Source: a virus. From it: a stretch of 64,000 nt of DNA. The translations under genes and the position numbers were made by a program. Position 1 is the stretch's first letter; each line of letters opens with the position of its first letter. Shown one piece after another: positions 42,751 through 52,265 of the stretch. Where the stretch lies: the UHGV virus genome UHGV-1378817, one strand, 5' to 3'. Below the pieces are notes generated by a model, which was not told the DNA's origin, made no database searches, and saw nothing but the letters and a program-made list of their open reading frames with translations.

Positions 42751-42827
42751 TGGTCTCCACGGAGTGATTCGAACACTCGACCTCCTGATCCCAAATCAGG
42801 CGCTCTACCAAGCTGAGCTACGCGGAG
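42751..42827 (-). tRNA. tRNA-Pro (anticodon UGG)
   Basis: Hand-folded cloverleaf: acceptor CUCCGCG/CGUGGAG (one G-U), D-arm GCUC..GAGC, anticodon loop UUUGGGA, T-arm GAGUG-UUCGAAU-CACUC, encoded CCA. Confidence 0.8.
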
Positions 42828-42838
42828 TATTTATTATT

Positions 42839-42913
42839 TGGTGGCCCTGGGTGGAATTGAACCACCGTCTGGCGATTATGAGTCGCTTGCTTGAACCTTC
42901 CAGCTACAGGGCC
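42839..42913 (-). tRNA. tRNA-Met (anticodon CAU; elongator Met or Ile2, G1-C72 paired)
   Basis: Acceptor GGCCCUG/CAGGGCC perfect, anticodon loop CUCAUAA, T-arm GGUGG-UUCAAUU-CCACC, encoded CCA. Confidence 0.75.
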
Positions 42914-42914
42914 A

Positions 42915-42990
42915 TGGTGCTGATAGCAGGACTCGAACCTGCAACCTATTGATTACAAATCAATTGCACTACCAATTGTGCTACATCAGC
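42915..42990 (-). tRNA. tRNA-Thr (anticodon UGU)
   Basis: Acceptor GCUGAUG/UAUCAGC (one G-U), D-arm GCAC..GUGC, anticodon loop UUUGUAA, T-arm GCAGG-UUCGAGU-CCUGC, encoded CCA. Confidence 0.8.
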
Positions 42991-42995
42991 AAAAA

Positions 42996-43094
42996 GGTGC
43001 TAGGTGATGGAATCGAACCACCTATGTATTCAACGACTACCTCGTCTATTTTCAGGATTAAAAATCCTCGCCCTTGCCAAAGGGCTTACCTAGC
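42996..43094 (-). ncRNA. atypical tRNA-like gene (98 nt), possible pseudo/variant tRNA with UUU anticodon-like loop
   Basis: Perfect 7-bp acceptor GCUAGGU/ACCUAGC, D-arm GCCC-UUUGGCAA-GGGC, T-arm GGUGG-UUCGAUU-CCAUC, but 3' end is CC not CCA and there is a 30-nt extra region between anticodon and T arms. Confidence 0.35.
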
Positions 43095-43100
43095 TCAGTA

Positions 43101-43189
43101 TGTTGACCATGTTGCTAGTCGGCGATGACGACTGTAACATTTGATAATCCGGTTCTGCTTCCGGCTTTCGCTTAATTACAAGGTCAACA
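43101..43189. ncRNA. candidate structured RNA element inside tRNA cluster
   Basis: 8-bp terminal helix UGUUGACC...GGUCAACA encloses about 72 nt with two internal hairpins (AGUCG/CGACU and CCGG/CCGG); does not fold as a canonical tRNA by hand. Confidence 0.2.
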
Positions 43190-43192
43190 ATA

Positions 43193-43283
43193 TGGCTGAG
43201 GGTAATGGAATCGAACCATCATCGAGTCATCCTCAACGGGACGGTTTTCAAGACCGCTTGAGCACCATTGCTCCCTACCCTCA
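43193..43283 (-). tRNA. tRNA-Ser (anticodon UGA), type II
   Basis: 91 nt; acceptor UGAGGGU/ACCCUCA, anticodon stem GCGGU/ACCGU with loop CUUGAAA, long variable arm, T-arm GAUGG-UUCGAUU-CCAUU, discriminator G, encoded CCA. Confidence 0.7.
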
Positions 43284-43397
43284 TTTATAAACAATACTGA
43301 TAATGACACTGATTTTCGAGCAGTTAGTGACTAGTATAAACGACGATAAATATCAATGCCATTATCTGTATGATTTATGCATTTAAAACTATAAATT

Positions 43398-43484
43398 TGG
43401 TGGGGAGTGGTGGAGTCGAACCACCCGAGTCGCAATGACAATAGATTTACAGTCTACACCGCTACCTCTACGGGATAACTCCCC
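43398..43484 (-). tRNA. tRNA-Tyr (anticodon GUA), type II
   Basis: 87 nt; acceptor GGGGAGU/ACUCCCC, anticodon arm GUAGA-CUGUAAA-UCUAU, long variable arm, T-arm GGUGG-UUCGACU-CCACC, encoded CCA. Confidence 0.8.
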
Positions 43485-43488
43485 AATT

Positions 43489-43563
43489 TGGCACCCCGTA
43501 CTGGACTCGAACCAGTGTCAACGGCTTAGAAGGCCGCTGCTTTATCCACTAAGCTAACAGGGC
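43489..43563 (-). tRNA. tRNA-Arg (anticodon UCU)
   Basis: Acceptor GCCCUGU/ACGGGGU (two G-U), D-arm GCUU..AAGC, anticodon arm GCGGC-CUUCUAA-GCCGU, T-arm CUGG-UUCGAGU-CCAG, encoded CCA. Confidence 0.75.
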
Positions 43564-46501: not shown

Positions 46502-47056
46502 TTACTCCCCGCTGTCAATAGCAAGACTCATTGCAATACTGTATGCCTCTTCTAATGGTAAGAGTCTACCCCACACATCCCAACCGACATCAAACTGCCT
46601 GCCAAACAACTGTTGTGTGGTTCCGTGAGCATGACCGAACAGTTGTACTGATCCGTGAGGCTTTCTGTTCCACTTTGCAAACTGGTAATGGCTCATACAG
46701 ATCAAATTCTTGTTGTGGCGAAGCTCGTAATAATCTACAACCTCATGATAGAACTCTTTCATAATTCTGACAGTCGTCCTTGTGTCATGGTTGCCACGAA
46801 CAAGAATAATATGTCCGTTCAACATATTTAGAATATCTGGAAGTAAGTTGTTGATATTTTTATCAGTAGTGCACGCAATATCTCCCAAGTGGAACACAGT
46901 GTCTGCAGGTGACACAACAGAGTTCCACTCGGCGATGATTCCCGCATTCATACTGTCAAGATTGTGATCATACTGAGATCTGTGTTTTTGACATGAATCA
47001 AACTCCATGACCCGCTGGTGGAGAAAGTGTGTGTCGCTTGTTACAAAGTATTTCAT
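46502..47056 (-). CDS. calcineurin-like metallophosphoesterase (candidate RNA-repair phosphatase), start revised
   Basis: Motifs SDTHF, HLGDIA, VRGNHD, FGHAHG; ATG at 47056 (MKYFVTSDTHF) lies just past the stop of the kinase gene; track ORF extends to 47161. Confidence 0.65.
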   Translation of the reverse strand: MKYFVTSDTHFLHQRVMEFDSCQKHRSQYDHNLDSMNAGIIAEWNSVVSPADTVFHLGDIACTTDKNINNLLPDILNMLNGHIILVRGNHDTRTTVRIMKEFYHEVVDYYELRHNKNLICMSHYQFAKWNRKPHGSVQLFGHAHGTTQQLFGRQFDVGWDVWGRLLPLEEAYSIAMSLAIDSGE

Positions 47057-47063
47057 ACATTCC

Positions 47064-47474
47064 TCATTTAAGTTTAATGCAGTTTTTAAGCTGGCGTTCC
47101 ATACGATCCACAACCCTGTCTGGAACATCATGAATGCTTTTATTACCGTGTCGGTTTTCAACCACGATTACGGTATAATTATACCCATGGCTGATTGCCA
47201 TGTCAACATATTCTTGCACATGTTTTTCTTTTGTAAACGTATTACTTACCACGATACGGTCGTATCCCATACGCATCATATCTTCTACGTTATCTTTGCA
47301 CCATTTTGCTGCAAGTGTTACTTTACTTGCATCCCAGTTGTAATTGCCGTCATCGTCGTACCAGAACATGTCGTTCTCAAAATGTGGATACAGACCTTCT
47401 AAAGATAGCGCATTTGCCAGTGTTGATTTGCCAGACCCTGGTAGACCACGCACGATATATAGCATTTTAGACAT
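47064..47474 (-). CDS. P-loop kinase, polynucleotide kinase-like, start revised
   Basis: Walker A GLPGSGKST (as in T4 Pnk kinase domain); ATG at 47474 with GGAGG SD; track ORF extends to 47531. Confidence 0.6.
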   Translation of the reverse strand: MSKMLYIVRGLPGSGKSTLANALSLEGLYPHFENDMFWYDDDGNYNWDASKVTLAAKWCKDNVEDMMRMGYDRIVVSNTFTKEKHVQEYVDMAISHGYNYTVIVVENRHGNKSIHDVPDRVVDRMERQLKNCIKLK

Positions 47475-47502
47475 AGTAATCCTCCGTTTTAATTTCAAAG
47501 AT

Positions 47503-47531
47503 AGTATACCTAACTGTTTTGTTAATTTCAA
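47503..47531 (-). promoter_or_regulatory. candidate promoter TTGAAA-17-TATACT for kinase/phosphatase operon
   Basis: Minus strand reads TTGAAA TTAACAAAACAGTTAGG TATACT in the 100-nt divergent intergenic region. Confidence 0.4.
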
Positions 47532-47592
47532 GTGTTGACACTAGGTTATTTGTGTGGCAGGATAGACTGACAAAATGACAAATGAGGAACGT

Positions 47593-48510
47593 ATGATGAA
47601 GTATTTTAATGCAGACGACCTAGTTGACAAAGGTCTTGTAACCAGTAGATATTACCCAGATCTTGGGTTAAAGATCTATAAATACGCCAGAAAAGTATTT
47701 TACAACAATTTATGGCATTTGTCCCCTCGTTTACTGGAGTGCCGAGGCATTGTTGTCGGTAATGAAGGAAATGTTGTGGCATGGCCCTTCACAAAAGTGT
47801 TTAACTTGGGAGAAAACTCCACCAACCTGCCTGACAATAAGCTTGTGACGGCGGTAGAGAAAAAGAACGGATTCCTTGGTGTGGTATCATCTCATAAAGG
47901 TGAACTATTGTTCTCAACAACCGGATCTCTTGATTCTCCATATTGTAACCTTGCAAAGGAAACCATCCAGGAGCAATGCGGTAATTTAGATCTTATCAAG
48001 AAGGTTATGGGCAATGAAAACATGACATTCATGTTTGAAATTTGTCACCCTTCAGATCCGCATATTGTTCAGGAAGATCATGGCGCATATTTGATAGGTT
48101 GCAGGTATAATGATTCTGGAATAATGCTACCAGAGGCAGCTTTAGATGGGATTGCCAAATACCTTGGTGCAAAACGTCCTCACACTGTGCGTGAAATTCC
48201 GTTCAGCTATGCAAAAGAATTGGCTGCAGAAACAAGAGGTGAAGGGTATATGATTCGTAAGCCTTACTATCCTTATGATCTGCAGCTGAAGATCAAGTCT
48301 CCATACTATCTGGCACGGAAGGCCGTAATGAGGGGTAAAGCTTGGAAGATTTGGGATGATGATATCTTTAAACGTGTTGACGAAGAGTTTTACGGCATGG
48401 TAAACTTCATTCGCAACAACTACACAGAGGATGTATGGAACTGCCTCCTGGAGCAGGAACGCCGTGAGATACTTGACTACTATTTCCACAACGAGGACTA
48501 TATGCAATGA
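47593..48510 (+). CDS. nucleotidyltransferase-superfamily ligase, RNA-ligase-like
   Basis: Motif I KKNGF (KxNG), motif IV-like EGYMIRK, motif V-like LKIKSP; start taken at ATG 47593 after GAGGA (track 47575); a TTGACA -35-like hexamer lies upstream at 47535. Confidence 0.5.
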   Translation: MMKYFNADDLVDKGLVTSRYYPDLGLKIYKYARKVFYNNLWHLSPRLLECRGIVVGNEGNVVAWPFTKVFNLGENSTNLPDNKLVTAVEKKNGFLGVVSSHKGELLFSTTGSLDSPYCNLAKETIQEQCGNLDLIKKVMGNENMTFMFEICHPSDPHIVQEDHGAYLIGCRYNDSGIMLPEAALDGIAKYLGAKRPHTVREIPFSYAKELAAETRGEGYMIRKPYYPYDLQLKIKSPYYLARKAVMRGKAWKIWDDDIFKRVDEEFYGMVNFIRNNYTEDVWNCLLEQERREILDYYFHNEDYMQ

Positions 48511-48857
48511 AGAAGTTGATTGTGTGGCTGGATGACTTGAGAGACCCGTCAAATTATGGGCTCCCAGACGCTATTTGGCTAAAGAATTCCTCCGAGTTTA
48601 TGGATTTTATTAACGATAATAGAAAGCTCTACAGACGCGTTTCTGAGTGGCATATGGACAACGACCTTGGAGAGGTATTAGAAGGGTACGATTGTCTATC
48701 TATGTTGGAGGAAAAATTTGTATTTGGTAAGCCTCCTGTAGTTGACAACGTGAAGATTTTCGTGCATACTTCTAACCCATCAGCTGCTCGTAAATTCATG
48801 CTTGCAGCTGACTCGTTTAAAAAGTTTGGAATAGAGATTAAACAAAACATCTACTGA
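48507..48857 (+). CDS. hypothetical protein (116 aa), receiver-like fold suspected
   Basis: ATGA overlap with upstream gene; pattern IVWLDDLRD...WHMDNDLG...VKIFVHTSNP loosely resembles a CheY-like receiver topology (weak). Confidence 0.4.
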   Translation: MKKLIVWLDDLRDPSNYGLPDAIWLKNSSEFMDFINDNRKLYRRVSEWHMDNDLGEVLEGYDCLSMLEEKFVFGKPPVVDNVKIFVHTSNPSAARKFMLAADSFKKFGIEIKQNIY

Positions 48858-48865
48858 GGACACTT

Positions 48866-49627
48866 ATGCGACGACTTATTATTATCTCCGGTGCTGGTTT
48901 GAGCGCTGAATCTGGTATTCCCACTTTCCGATCTGGTAGCACTGCAATGTGGGAGAATTTCAGCATCGATGAGGTGTGCAACATCCACACCTTTGCCAAG
49001 AACTACTATAAGGTGCATGACTTTTACAATGCACGTCGTGTAGCTCTAGGCAGTGTTGAGCCTAACCTTGCACATCTTCGGATCGCTGAGTGGTATTCCC
49101 GCTGGTCTGGTCGTGTGATCAACCTTACCACCAATGTAGATGATTTGCTGGAGCGTGCTGGTGTAAAACATGAAGATATTTTACATGTCCACGGGTATTT
49201 GCCAGAAATAGTCTATGAGGACGATGAAGGAAGTGACGTCATTAAGGACATTGGATACTCTGAGGTAGACGCAGGAAAGTATACCTGGGTTAAGCCTAAT
49301 GTGGTGTTCTTCGGAGAAGTAGCTCCGAAGTATACAGACATGTATGACCTGTTGACTTCTCTTACGAGCAATGATATGGTTATCCTTGTAGGGTGCTCCA
49401 ACACAGTTATCAATTTTAACTGGGAGCTATTCCCTGCCTGCAATAAGGGAACAAAACTGCTGATCGTTAACAAATACGACTCACAGCAGCTAGGGGAGAA
49501 TGGCATTTCACGTAGTGATATTTACCAATATGAGGATCGCGGCATCCCAGTTTGGTTTAACGGGGCGGTTGATGCTTTCTCTGATAAAACATTCATTGAG
49601 ACCGTAGAAAACTTTATGGAACTTTAA
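48866..49627 (+). CDS. Sir2-family NAD-dependent protein (sirtuin-like)
   Basis: GAGLSAESGIPTFR matches the sirtuin GAGIS..SGIP.FR motif; later TTNVDDLLERAG and HG..P blocks; GAGGA SD. Confidence 0.7.
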   Translation: MRRLIIISGAGLSAESGIPTFRSGSTAMWENFSIDEVCNIHTFAKNYYKVHDFYNARRVALGSVEPNLAHLRIAEWYSRWSGRVINLTTNVDDLLERAGVKHEDILHVHGYLPEIVYEDDEGSDVIKDIGYSEVDAGKYTWVKPNVVFFGEVAPKYTDMYDLLTSLTSNDMVILVGCSNTVINFNWELFPACNKGTKLLIVNKYDSQQLGENGISRSDIYQYEDRGIPVWFNGAVDAFSDKTFIETVENFMEL

Positions 49628-49640
49628 AAGGAGACCTTTA

Positions 49641-50354
49641 ATGCTGAATACCAAATTAATTGACAACCTGGAAAAACTGTCCCAACCTGAAAACTACCTT
49701 TGGTCTGCCAACTGGGTGGAAAACTGGAACCGTGTGGCAGCTAAAGTGAAAAAATCATACACACCATTCGAATTACAGCTTAGCTTCATTGAGGAAGAGT
49801 TCAATGAAGTTTTGGAAGAGCTGGAGAAAGGTGATGGCGGAGATCACCTGCTAAAAGAGGCCTGCGATCTTCACGTTGTCACAAGTTATGCCGCTTATCT
49901 TGTTAATGATAATCACGAAAAGTGGTCAAACCTGTTTGATAATCCACAGGGTCTTAAGTTCAAGATCGGTGAGTTCTATGATACACTGATCGCTGCGAAA
50001 AACACCTCTAAGCAAAAAGCGTCCGCTTACCGCTTAGCAGAGTTGTCAACAGCTTTGCTGTTCCAGCTTCGCGGCGATGTGTGCGGGATGATGCGTAAGG
50101 TTCTCAAATCGAATGACAGCAAGTTTGCACGGGTCAACCATCTACGGTATTCACACGGTGCCAGTGCAGATATGCCTGCTGAACAACTCATCGAGTTGGA
50201 GATTAAAGATCTTGAGCGACGCTTTGATGGTCGATATGAAGGTTTTGTTGCTAAGGAAGAATTCTACAACGGTAATAAAGTTATCATATTCCTTGACAGC
50301 AAAGGTAAGATCATGAAGCCTTCGAGCTTCAAGGATGTAACAGAGTATATTTAA
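49641..50354 (+). CDS. MazG-like all-alpha NTP pyrophosphohydrolase domain protein
   Basis: EEEFNEVLEELEKGD ... EACDLH fits the ExxE...ExxD metal-binding pattern; AAGGAG SD. Confidence 0.4.
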   Translation: MLNTKLIDNLEKLSQPENYLWSANWVENWNRVAAKVKKSYTPFELQLSFIEEEFNEVLEELEKGDGGDHLLKEACDLHVVTSYAAYLVNDNHEKWSNLFDNPQGLKFKIGEFYDTLIAAKNTSKQKASAYRLAELSTALLFQLRGDVCGMMRKVLKSNDSKFARVNHLRYSHGASADMPAEQLIELEIKDLERRFDGRYEGFVAKEEFYNGNKVIIFLDSKGKIMKPSSFKDVTEYI

Positions 50355-50360
50355 CAACAT

Positions 50361-50386
50361 AGCCGGGATTACCCGGCTTTACTTGT
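50361..50386 (+). terminator. intrinsic terminator
   Basis: AGCCGGG-AUUA-CCCGGCU followed by UUUACUUGUUG immediately after stop of 49641..50354. Confidence 0.5.
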
Positions 50387-50726: not shown

Positions 50727-50982
50727 TCTTGCTAAACCTGTAGAAGCACACCAGTTTGACGGAAGCTCTTCATCAGTATCTGATCTGCAACGGTGGATTG
50801 ATACAGGTGTGTTTACATCGTCACCTGTTCGTACCAGAGATCTTCGTCGCATGTGTGAGCTTGTCGAGCCGTTTGGTAACCTGGTCTTGTACCAGGGAGA
50901 TTGGTTAGTTGACTTTATGGGAGACTGGTTGGTAATGAGTAAAGAAGAGATGTTTAACATTTTTAAGGAAGAGGCCGAGTAA
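50713..50982 (+). CDS. hypothetical protein (89 aa)
   Basis: GTG start with AAGGAGGA SD 6 nt upstream. Confidence 0.4.
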   Translation: MPLFNLAKPVEAHQFDGSSSSVSDLQRWIDTGVFTSSPVRTRDLRRMCELVEPFGNLVLYQGDWLVDFMGDWLVMSKEEMFNIFKEEAE

Positions 50983-52265
50983 TGCATCAGATCAAAACAA
51001 CACTGTACGCACTGAACAAAGATGGCAGCTACCAACAGTGGAAAGTATTCACGGATGGTGATAAGGTTATCGTAGAGTTTGGCAAGCTTGATGGTAAACT
51101 GCAATACAAAGAGACGGTATGCACGCCTAAGAACGTAGGTCGTGCCAACGAGACTACCGCTGAGCAACAGGCCGAGCTTGAGGCTATTAGCAAGTGGGAA
51201 AAACAAGTCCGTCTTGGGTATGTTGAGAATATGGAAGATTGCGAGCAGGGTGTTGACCTTTTACCCATGCTGGTGCATGACTACCTGAAGCGTGGCAAGG
51301 CTCTTAAATTACCTTGCTGGATCTTGCGTAAGTTAGATGGCCTTCGTCTACTTGTTGTTTTCCAGAATGGTGAGCCCAAATTTATTTCCCGTGGTAATAA
51401 GTCCTACCCTATTCAAGGAAAGCTTCTGGAGCAACTTCGCTCTTTCCACCTCACCACTGGGATTAAACAGCTCGACGGAGAGCTCTATATTCATGGTCTG
51501 CCTCTGCAGAAAATAGTTTCTCTTGCTAAACGATGGCGCACACAGGAAGAAATTCAGGCCGAGATCGATAAAGACTACAAGGCAGATAAAAAACGCCGTC
51601 AGGCTGCTATTAAGGCAGGTTTAGCAACATACAAAAACTTCAATAAGATGGACATTCCTGTTGATGTTGAGCCTGTTCGTGATGATTTGCGTTACGGAGG
51701 GTATTGCAGCTACGACTTAGAGTATCATATTTTCGATATCCCTAGCGATAAGGTGTGGTGGGATCCTGAAACAGAGTCTGGGCGCTGTAAGGATCTTATG
51801 GAGGCAAATGGTGCCATTTCTTCTTTGATGCTTGATCATATTAAGGTTGTTGATGCAGAGCTTGCATATACAGTTGATCGGTGCGAAGAGTCTGTTGGTA
51901 TATTTATGTCTGAGGGATATGAAGGTACCATTATGCGTAACTTCTGTGGTAAGTATGAGTATGGTCAGCGAACATCTGAAGCATTGAAATGGAAAAAGTT
52001 CAACGACGCAGAGGTGAAAGTTATTGACGTTGAGAAAGATAAGAATGATGAAGGTGTTCTTATCTGTGTTGACAAGGAGGGTGTTGTTGTTAAAATGAAG
52101 ATGAAAGGCACGCACGAGGAGCGTAGCTATGACAGGATGCAGGAAATGATCGGCAAGTTTGTCACCTTCAAATATCAAGCAAGGACAGAAGACAACAATT
52201 ACCAATTCCCTGTCGGTATCTGCGTCCGAAATGTTAACCCGGACACTTGGGAGGTGCTGGAATGA
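50982..52265 (+). CDS. ATP-dependent DNA ligase
   Basis: Motif I KLDGLR (KxDGxR adenylation lysine) at about aa 115; 427 aa. Confidence 0.7.
   Translation: MHQIKTTLYALNKDGSYQQWKVFTDGDKVIVEFGKLDGKLQYKETVCTPKNVGRANETTAEQQAELEAISKWEKQVRLGYVENMEDCEQGVDLLPMLVHDYLKRGKALKLPCWILRKLDGLRLLVVFQNGEPKFISRGNKSYPIQGKLLEQLRSFHLTTGIKQLDGELYIHGLPLQKIVSLAKRWRTQEEIQAEIDKDYKADKKRRQAAIKAGLATYKNFNKMDIPVDVEPVRDDLRYGGYCSYDLEYHIFDIPSDKVWWDPETESGRCKDLMEANGAISSLMLDHIKVVDAELAYTVDRCEESVGIFMSEGYEGTIMRNFCGKYEYGQRTSEALKWKKFNDAEVKVIDVEKDKNDEGVLICVDKEGVVVKMKMKGTHEERSYDRMQEMIGKFVTFKYQARTEDNNYQFPVGICVRNVNPDTWEVLE

Follow-up and report, generated by a model that had tools for sequence, protein, structure and literature searches.

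Host defences that cut tRNAs (PrrC, RloC, PARIS, OLD, Cas13 and retron effectors) are now known to be widespread, and the only well-studied repair answer of a phage is that of T4, in which Pnkp (PseT) and the RNA ligase Rnl1 (gp63) oppose PrrC. Iyer, Burroughs, Anantharaman and Aravind (2022) have since described a sirtuin-centred phage RNA-repair neighbourhood, their 'type 2', with Escherichia phage V5 and Proteus phage Mydo as prototypes (PMC9503650). The V5 neighbourhood comprises a sirtuin, a tRNA ligase like that of T4, cREC (a cyclic-phosphate-processing receiver-like protein), together with a nucleotide kinase and a MazG pyrophosphatase, to which a calcineurin-like phosphoesterase is sometimes added, and the sirtuin was proposed to act like KptA in removing 2'-phosphates (PMC9503650). 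Here we analyse a locus of this type in UHGV virus genome UHGV-1378817, of which a 64,000-nucleotide stretch was studied (the window; positions are counted from its first letter). Three of its genes, encoding a small P-loop kinase, a metallophosphoesterase and an RNA ligase, appear to make up a phage RNA end-healing and sealing cassette of separate proteins, a reading to which we assign a probability of about 0.72, and the most likely role of this cassette is to mend RNAs cut by host defences.

The window holds the same system as the type 2 neighbourhood, with all six of the listed components lying within 46502-50354. More than 100 Vequintavirus (rV5-like) coliphage genomes match a 4.4-kb stretch around the RNA-repair genes at 97-98% identity, Escherichia phage RudolfGeigy coming first, and the GenBank names used in these records vary (RNA ligase, polynucleotide kinase, phosphoesterase, Sir2). 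GenBank records already annotate the cluster, and a published description covers it in phage V5. Because the window is ~98% identical to annotated Vequintavirus genomes and the V5 neighbourhood has been published (PMC9503650), the finding is not new; its value is confirmatory, in that it re-discovers a neighbourhood known as a computational prediction.

A kinase, a phosphoesterase and an RNA ligase

The initial annotation had placed a minus-strand kinase-phosphoesterase pair next to a divergent plus-strand ligase at 46502-48510 and had read the three as the kinase, phosphatase and RNA ligase of a repair set. Open reading frames (ORFs) were found in just this arrangement, and the motifs quoted for each protein are all present:

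46502..47056, minus strand: binuclear metallophosphoesterase, 184 amino acids, predicted 2',3'-cyclic phosphodiesterase / 2'(3')-phosphatase for RNA 3' ends
47064..47474, minus strand: small P-loop kinase, 136 amino acids, predicted polynucleotide (RNA) 5'-hydroxyl kinase
47475..47592, no strand: divergent intergenic region between kinase and ligase, with promoter-like sites (consensus matches only)
47593..48510, plus strand: ATP-dependent RNA ligase of the Rnl1/Trl1 lineage, 305 amino acids; its ORF opens at 47575

Profiles, folds and gene linkage support the proposed combination, with the enzyme activities and the tRNA target standing as predictions; each of the sequence- and model-based checks named with the initial annotation favoured its reading. 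In profile searches, each protein matched a PHROG family (phosphoesterase, phrog_547, 1.8e-52; kinase, 9e-59; ligase, phrog_562, 1.3e-66), and the Pfam matches exceeded their curated cut-offs.

As judged by family and predicted fold, the ligase is an Rnl1-type ATP-dependent RNA ligase for which sealing activity is predicted. It matches PF09511 (RNA_lig_T4_1) with 56.0 bits (gathering threshold 28.3; 6.4e-15) over the entire length of the model, positions 1-227 of 227, and a profile of 33 relatives finds the T4 Rnl1 structures (2C5U, 8e-13) and no other ligase. Family profiles were needed for this purpose, as single-sequence searches of the ligase and the kinase against PDB sequences returned no useful match. 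In ORF numbering, the motifs are I (K96-K-N-G99), III (E155), IV (E223-G224) and V (K239-x-K241), with the strings KKNG, EGYMIR and LKIKS, and residues R57, K74, F76, K96, E155, E223, G224, K239 and K241 align with R54, K75, F77, K99, E159, E227, G228, K240 and K242 of T4 Rnl1. The catalytic residues are invariant in the 33 relatives and the same in 66 ligases from fetched loci except at F76, which is F or Y. An AlphaFold model (pLDDT, predicted local distance difference test, 89) has the T4 Rnl1 fold; Foldseek places fungal Trl1-LIG and T4 Rnl1 first (~1e-12), Rnl3 and Rnl5 next and DNA ligases much weaker, so identification as a DNA ligase or capping enzyme is not borne out. The protein is not an RnlA equivalog (NCBIfam TIGR02308, 39.3 bits against a cut-off of 242.25), a status that would imply orthology of function with T4 RnlA and its C-terminal tRNA-specificity domain, and after motif V it has ~70 residues where T4 Rnl1 has ~130, the T4-specific segment being missing. 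A tail-fibre-attachment role, implied by GenBank names transferred from T4 gp63, was rejected as the primary function: we found no evidence for it, and the gene lies in a nucleic-acid-metabolism region.

The kinase carries its Walker A motif, GLPGSGKST, at residues 10-18 and belongs to a very large family of ~130-residue proteins (at least 7,900 clusters scored) that is present in 622 phage GenBank records. Among PDB sequences, the only domain-spanning matches to its family profile are PSTK, Pnkp1, T4 Pnk and CthPnk, with nucleotide kinases matched at the P-loop alone, and its structural model is nearest to polynucleotide and tRNA kinases rather than to deoxynucleoside monophosphate (dNMP) or nucleoside kinases, the identity that the initial annotation had said would count against its reading. 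Aligned by hhalign with the T4 Pnk sequence, which was checked against GenBank, it scores 95.8% probability over the whole kinase domain, with the P-loop and the general-base Asp35 in register (D35 on D35), R108 on T4 R122 and K112 on R126. It consists of the kinase domain only and has no C-terminal DxDxT (HAD) 3'-phosphatase domain. Many GenBank records name the 136-residue protein '3'-phosphatase, 5'-polynucleotide kinase', which overstates it because a phosphatase domain is lacking; names found among related genes are dephospho-CoA kinase, ATPase and ribose-phosphate pyrophosphokinase.

The phosphoesterase has an intact binuclear metal site (D8-x-H10, G58-D59, G88-N-H-D91, H123 and G141-H-x-H144). 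Among 30 relatives, conservation reaches 90% or more at D8/H10, D59, N89/H90, H123 and H142/H144. It matches Pfam Metallophos (PF00149) at 29.5 bits (cut-off 21.5) and shows no sequence match to the PPP protein phosphatases. The three putative activities are carried by three ORFs with a metallophosphoesterase in place of a HAD phosphatase, as had been proposed. The sole related solved structure found by the family profile is that of the uncharacterised Aquifex protein aq_1665 (1XM7, 3.9e-19). Since this only structural relative is uncharacterised, the role predicted for the phosphoesterase rests on gene context and on the precedent of Clostridium thermocellum Pnkp (CthPnkp), in which binuclear metallophosphoesterases are proven 2',3'-cyclic phosphodiesterase/phosphatases of bacterial RNA repair (PMC2190708). 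Most family members end in a conserved D-H-H; the window protein ends ...IDSGE without it, and its closest relatives, in loci L047 and L018, retain D-H at the C-terminus. Two homologues (L064:8007-8522 and L053:8013-8531) have degenerate metal motifs (SNQQ for SDTH, LGN for LGD and GEFD for GNHD) and are probably inactive to judge by these substitutions; both remain near a kinase and an Rnl2-like ligase.

Linkage of the three genes across phages

Kinase relatives at 42-51% identity anchored 80 loci on viral contigs and phosphoesterase relatives at 31-41% identity anchored 80 loci as well; ORFs were searched with purpose-built family profiles, and proximity was scored only where the flank on each side was 9 kb or longer. 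Around the kinase, the phosphoesterase family was present in 57 of 80 loci (directly adjacent in 24), an Rnl1-like ligase in 28 and an Rnl2-like ligase in 26, with one or the other in 49 and a ligase together with a phosphoesterase in 40. Where at least 8 kb of flank was available on both sides, 30 of 39 kinase loci had a ligase. In the loci with 9-kb flanks, 16 of 18 Rnl1-like ligases and all 20 phosphoesterases lay no more than 3 kb from the kinase and on its strand. Anchoring on the phosphoesterase gave a ligase in 42 of 80 loci, 38 of them with the Rnl1-like type. Linkage to two different ligase families is what would be expected of an end-healing module, and because so many kinase loci have the phosphoesterase (57/80) and a ligase (49/80), the trio has the appearance of a conserved phage cassette for end healing and sealing; it is a widespread core, found across unrelated phages. 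The split arrangement is frequent in viral metagenomes as well as among cultured phages of Escherichia, Pseudomonas, Vibrio and Klebsiella. There is also a fused phage protein family, phrog_8238, to different parts of which the kinase and the ligase each match.

In closer relatives the genes form a co-directional operon in the order metallophosphoesterase-ligase-(cREC)-kinase-Sir2, and for this reason we regard the divergent layout of the window as a rearranged single unit. The full six-gene set recurs in four relatives (L008, L047, L018 and L049).

The plus-strand operon and its surroundings

The initial annotation was right about the three genes of 46502-48510 but drew the set too narrowly: the ligase is followed in one operon by cREC, Sir2 and MazG-like genes, so that the unit exceeds the three genes first noted. 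The further features are:

48507..48857, plus strand: cREC protein, 116 amino acids (PF20274, phrog_1479)
48866..49627, plus strand: Sir2-family protein, 253 amino acids (PF02146, phrog_2162)
49641..50354, plus strand: MazG-superfamily-like 'nucleotide pyrophosphohydrolase', 237 amino acids (phrog_671), the final gene of the plus-strand operon
50361..50378, no strand: terminator-like G+C-rich hairpin that closes the ligase-cREC-Sir2-MazG unit
42751..43563, minus strand: seven phage tRNA genes (ARAGORN and Rfam), downstream of and co-oriented with the kinase-phosphoesterase pair

Every gene of the unit is preceded by a Shine-Dalgarno site. The probable ligase start at 47593 has GAGGA before it and is shared by relatives and the GenBank annotation; the cREC start overlaps the ligase stop, and the later gaps in the plus-strand unit are 8-13 nucleotides (nt). 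On the minus strand, the kinase ORF (47064-47531) likely starts at 47474 behind GGAGG and the phosphoesterase ORF (46502-47161) at the ATG of 47056 behind GAGGA, with 7 nt between the kinase stop and the phosphoesterase start. The terminal hairpin, AGCCGGG-ATTA-CCCGGCT, is followed by a T-rich tail and is found on both strands. A sigma-70-like site, TTGAAA-17-TATACT (10/12), runs on the minus strand from 47531 to 47503, 29 nt upstream of the kinase ATG, and is a consensus match only. For the ligase operon, a perfect -35 hexamer (TTGACA, ~47535) was seen and no acceptable -10 within 47475..47592. A perfect sigma-70 consensus (TTGACA-17-TATAAT, 12/12) runs from 47206 to 47178 on the minus strand, inside the kinase coding sequence and ~120 nt upstream of the phosphoesterase start, and might serve as an internal promoter from which the phosphoesterase and genes further downstream are transcribed.

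The cREC protein matches PF20274 (cREC_REC) at 55 bits (cut-off 27) and phrog_1479 at 2.3e-35. Iyer et al. (2021) defined the family and saw its operonic linkage to RNA ligases (PMC7824862), and its members are predicted to open 2',3'- or 1''-2''-cyclic phosphates (PMC7824862, PMC9503650). It stands directly upstream of Rnl2-like ligases in three of our loci (L056, L062 and L071). The Sir2 protein matches PF02146 (3e-27) and phrog_2162 (5e-109), and its core motifs GAGxS and HG are present. To judge by its sequence, the protein lacks the CxxC...CxxC zinc-ribbon cysteines, with only C38 and C177 conserved among four relatives, which fits the 'distinct clade of sirtuins' to which such phage proteins have been assigned (PMC9503650). 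Close homologues (57-58% identity) also occur alone, without repair genes. Among 50 Sir2-anchored loci, 14 had repair genes and 36 had Sir2 only; these 36, taken as a negative control, gave zero matches to any of the four repair profiles, and Sir2 was present in just 3 of the 80 kinase-anchored loci. Sir2 is thus lineage-specific and tied to repair genes only in rV5-like lineages. The MazG-like protein matches phrog_671 (6e-22) with no Pfam match, and such a gene is counted in the V5 neighbourhood (PMC9503650); it and Sir2 are lineage-specific accessories of the ligase operon.

At 50982-52265 (plus strand), 0.6 kb past the hairpin, lies an ATP-dependent DNA ligase gene (phrog_114, 4.9e-83). 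Pfam detects only its C-terminal part (residues 285-416), which points to a divergent N-terminal adenylation region. Between 18 and 23 GenBank records bear the label 'Campylobacter phage' and share more than 90% identity with this region of an E. coli phage, and for that reason they are probably mislabelled or contaminant genomes.

A Trl1-like signature in the ligase

In the structure of Chaetomium Trl1-LIG, a sulfate was taken as a mimic of the terminal 2'-PO4 and is bound by Asn150 (motif I), His227, Arg334 and Arg337, four residues that were said to be unique to Trl1, for which the terminal 2'-PO4 is essential (PMC6379707). We compared this site with the phage ligase by hhalign, MAFFT and hmmalign, using Trl1 sequences from PDB alignments and the T4 Rnl1 sequence from GenBank. 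Since the hhalign comparison of the ligase family with one Trl1-LIG sequence reached a probability of 7.4%, its alignment was used for residue mapping only and cross-checked with MAFFT and hmmalign. All three methods put N98 on Asn150 and H163 on His227, where T4 Rnl1 has D101 and I167. K249 and R253 are conserved just past motif V, and R253 falls 12 residues after the second motif V lysine, the spacing of Arg337 in Trl1, although the equivalence of K249/R253 to Arg334/Arg337 depends on the alignment, hhalign and MAFFT placing the RQWR of Trl1 in an insertion.

The signature positions co-vary almost perfectly in 66 distinct Rnl1-like ligases from the fetched loci: 48 have N/DPH/K/R, 17 have the T4-like D/NRI/H/T, and one is a variant, DQKIHD. 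Such co-variation suggests that the positions form one functional site separating two ligase classes. The pattern hints at an end chemistry that is Trl1-like rather than strictly T4-like, and it accords both with recognition of a 2'-phosphate and with the sirtuin hypothesis. The two classes differ in their association with Sir2 (15/54 against 1/21), a comparison confounded by relatedness and locus sampling.

The tRNA cluster

The initial annotation had put the repair genes directly beside the tRNA cluster, at about 3.5 kb. The distance is fair, but 'directly beside' is generous, as several small ORFs occupy the 2.9-kb gap between the cluster and the phosphoesterase gene. The set comprises Pro(UGG), Met/Ile(CAU), Thr(UGU), Lys(UUU), Ser(UGA), Tyr(GUA) and Arg(UCU) and overlaps the known targets of tRNA-cutting defences; P2 OLD, for example, favours tRNA-Thr(UGU), and the Thr tRNAs of phages are resistant to it (PMC12445682). 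Replacement and repair of tRNAs may be complementary in this phage.

The tRNA-Lys(UUU)-like gene (42998-43094, minus strand; 97-99 nt) is odd. ARAGORN reports it as 'tRNA-???', and the annotation of phage RudolfGeigy gives it as tRNA-Lys; its cloverleaf is normal, with ~26 extra nt forming an additional variable-region stem-loop, which is unusual for a lysine tRNA, and it scores 35.5 bits against the Rfam tRNA model with a fold z-score of -3.7. The idea that these nucleotides are an intron needing the ligase was set aside, since both Rfam and folding assign them to an added arm of the variable region. Because PrrC classically targets tRNA-Lys(UUU), the odd-shaped copy might escape nucleases. 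Rfam 'Plastid-ycf2' matches at 42841-42990 (plus strand; 41 and 27 bits, sub-gathering) were dismissed as artefacts of tRNA-like structure, lying exactly antisense to two tRNA genes.

Discussion

The conservation of the trio and the family assignments of its members lead us to infer a pathway in which both the order of steps and the identity of the target are predictions. A metal-independent host ribonuclease would cut an RNA, most plausibly in a tRNA anticodon loop, and leave a 2',3'-cyclic phosphate and a 5'-OH. The binuclear metallophosphoesterase would then open and remove the cyclic phosphate, and cREC may assist it or act in parallel; the small P-loop kinase would phosphorylate the 5'-OH with Asp35 as general base; and the ligase, after adenylylating itself on Lys96, would activate the 5'-phosphate and seal the break.

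Several observations weigh against this interpretation. The linkage counts are raw, uncorrected for how often RNA ligases occur in viral loci taken at random, and 9 of the 39 full-flank loci have the kinase without phosphoesterase or ligase. Some of these partnerless kinases adjoin a gene for phosphoribosyl pyrophosphate (PRPP) synthetase, an inosine monophosphate dehydrogenase (IMPDH)/GMP-reductase-like protein or an HD-domain protein (L038:8731-9663, L036:7445-8476 and L066:9486-10016). Given these members, the family may not act wholly on RNA ends, and there is a hint that part of it works in nucleotide metabolism. Arg38, an essential residue of T4 Pnk, is without counterpart in the kinase, where W38 is aligned and most relatives have F. 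By its profile, the phosphoesterase falls in an uncharacterised aq_1665-like subfamily, and against solved structures that profile gave no match to the CthPnkp phosphatase, lambda phosphatase or other PPP enzymes. Iyer et al. call the kinase a 'nucleotide kinase' (PMC9503650), and our literature search on RNA repair in rV5 and the Vequintavirinae found no experimental study, biochemical or genetic.

A different chemistry for the same cassette is a tentative alternative that we think unlikely on present evidence. In this eukaryal, Trl1/Tpt1-type scheme, the phosphoesterase or cREC would open the cyclic phosphate to a 2'-phosphate, the ligase would recognise the resulting 3'-OH/2'-PO4 end and leave a 2'-phosphate at the junction, the sirtuin would remove it with NAD+ in the manner of KptA/Tpt1, and cREC and the MazG-like enzyme would clear the ADP-ribose cyclic-phosphate by-product. 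The part of the sirtuin was proposed by Iyer et al. (2022), who also described the V5 neighbourhood (PMC9503650). The scheme draws on the tight operon that joins ligase, cREC, Sir2 and MazG-like genes, on N98 and H163 aligning with Trl1 Asn150 and His227, on the conserved K249/R253 pair and on the co-variation in 66 ligases; moreover, an active-site mutant of CthPnkp yields only 2'-NMP (nucleoside monophosphate), which means that metallophosphoesterases can produce 2'-phosphate ends (PMC2190708). However, Sir2 is no core partner (3/80 kinase loci, with 36/50 Sir2 loci lacking any repair gene), ligases of the T4 type (class B) accompany the same kinase and phosphoesterase families, the equivalence of the RxxR pair is ambiguous alongside an hhalign probability to Trl1 of just 7.4%, and 2'-phosphotransferase activity is known for no sirtuin. 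In its boldest form, likewise speculative, the idea is that the rV5-type ligase is a bacterial-virus counterpart of Trl1 that might read a 3'-OH/2'-phosphate end through Asn98, His163, Lys249 and Arg253, a co-varying site absent from T4 Rnl1, and that the sirtuin, encoded two genes downstream, would be a new NAD+-dependent RNA 2'-phosphotransferase replacing Tpt1/KptA. If true, the phage would have rebuilt the healing, sealing and dephosphorylation pathway of fungi and plants from unrelated parts, with metallophosphoesterase/cREC for the 2H cyclic phosphodiesterase (CPD) and a sirtuin for Tpt1.

Other proposals depart from RNA repair or from its presumed substrate. The kinase, phosphoesterase, cREC, Sir2 and MazG-like proteins might act on small molecules (nucleotides, cyclic nucleotides, or immune signals derived from NAD+ or ADP-ribose) in counter-defence or metabolism, with the ligase next to them by accident. 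The kinase-family members beside PRPP synthetase, IMPDH-like or HD genes with no ligase nearby would fit, as would family names in GenBank such as dephospho-CoA kinase and ATPase and the ties drawn in the literature between the Sir2, cREC and MazG families and NAD+/ADP-ribose and nucleotide processing; yet most loci tie the kinase and phosphoesterase to RNA ligases of two families, the kinase fold ranks polynucleotide kinases well over nucleotide and nicotinamide-riboside kinases, and fused kinase-ligase proteins exist (phrog_8238), so we hold this to be improbable. It is more improbable still that the enzymes serve the phage's own RNAs, for instance in maturing or rejoining the downstream tRNAs, instead of repairing host-inflicted damage. 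The kinase-phosphoesterase pair is upstream of and co-oriented with the tRNA cluster, one of whose members, the Lys(UUU)-like tRNA, is structurally unusual, but its extra 26 nt are a variable arm and not an anticodon-loop intron, and a scan of the neighbours with Pfam and PHROG profiles turned up no splicing endonuclease. We give least credence of all to the repair of DNA ends, in which the set would process nicks with 5'-OH and 3'-phosphate and feed the ATP-dependent DNA ligase 2.5 kb downstream. T4 Pnkp also acts on DNA, the DNA ligase gene is on the strand of the RNA ligase, and the phosphoesterase weakly matches NCBIfam PdeM (E 7e-4, well short of the cut-off), which is a ligase-associated DNA damage response protein; what is conserved across phages, however, is an RNA ligase (Rnl1- or Rnl2-like) rather than a DNA ligase, and a terminator-like hairpin stands between the operon and the DNA ligase region.

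We therefore return to an RNA end-healing and sealing cassette as the best explanation of the locus. Whichever end chemistry it uses, a ligase with a Trl1-like signature encoded beside a sirtuin offers a concrete route to asking whether sirtuins act in the removal of 2'-phosphates from RNA.

Comparison with known systems

The predicted set follows the logic of T4 Pnkp and Rnl1 against PrrC, namely a 5'-kinase, a 3'-end phosphatase and a ligase of the Rnl1 lineage. The kinase fold, catalytic Asp and P-loop match those of T4 Pnk, and the ligase has all of the catalytic residues of T4 Rnl1. Unlike in T4, the activities would reside on three proteins, the phosphatase is a binuclear metallophosphoesterase where that of T4 is a DxDxT HAD domain, and the genes are clustered with cREC, Sir2 and MazG-like genes. 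The ligase, at 305 amino acids, is without most of the C-terminal domain of T4 Rnl1, and it has N/DPH/K/R where T4 Rnl1 has D/NRI/H/S.

Bacterial Pnkp-Hen1 systems (Clostridium thermocellum Pnkp; Capnocytophaga Pnkp1-Rnl-Hen1) consist of fused domains and the 2'-O-methyltransferase Hen1, whereas the window has three separate genes, and no methyltransferase, Hen1-like or other, was found among nine neighbours scanned with Pfam and PHROG profiles. Their phosphoesterase is lambda-phosphatase-like and their ligase of the Rnl4 type; the window phosphoesterase has no sequence match to the lambda-phosphatase type.

With Trl1 (LIG-KIN-CPD) and Tpt1/KptA, the phage locus shares the ligase most of all: Trl1-LIG is the best structural match of the ligase model, and the motif I Asn and the His after motif III, which contact the putative 2'-PO4 in Trl1, are common to both. 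Trl1 fuses its ligase to a GTP-dependent kinase and a 2H cyclic phosphodiesterase, whereas the phage ligase stands alone with the kinase as a separate gene. The phosphodiesterase would be the metallophosphoesterase and/or cREC in place of the 2H CPD of Trl1, and no 2H domain was detected among the neighbours scanned with the same profiles. Likewise, the NAD+-using enzyme encoded beside the ligase is a sirtuin, where the Trl1/Tpt1 system has Tpt1 with its ADP-ribosyltransferase (ART) fold.

The account that Iyer et al. (2022) give of the type 2 neighbourhood is purely a computational prediction, and the structure of the window is no different. To that account we add that the kinase-phosphoesterase-ligase trio is a widespread core, that Sir2 is lineage-specific, and that the ligase has a co-varying signature of the Trl1 kind.

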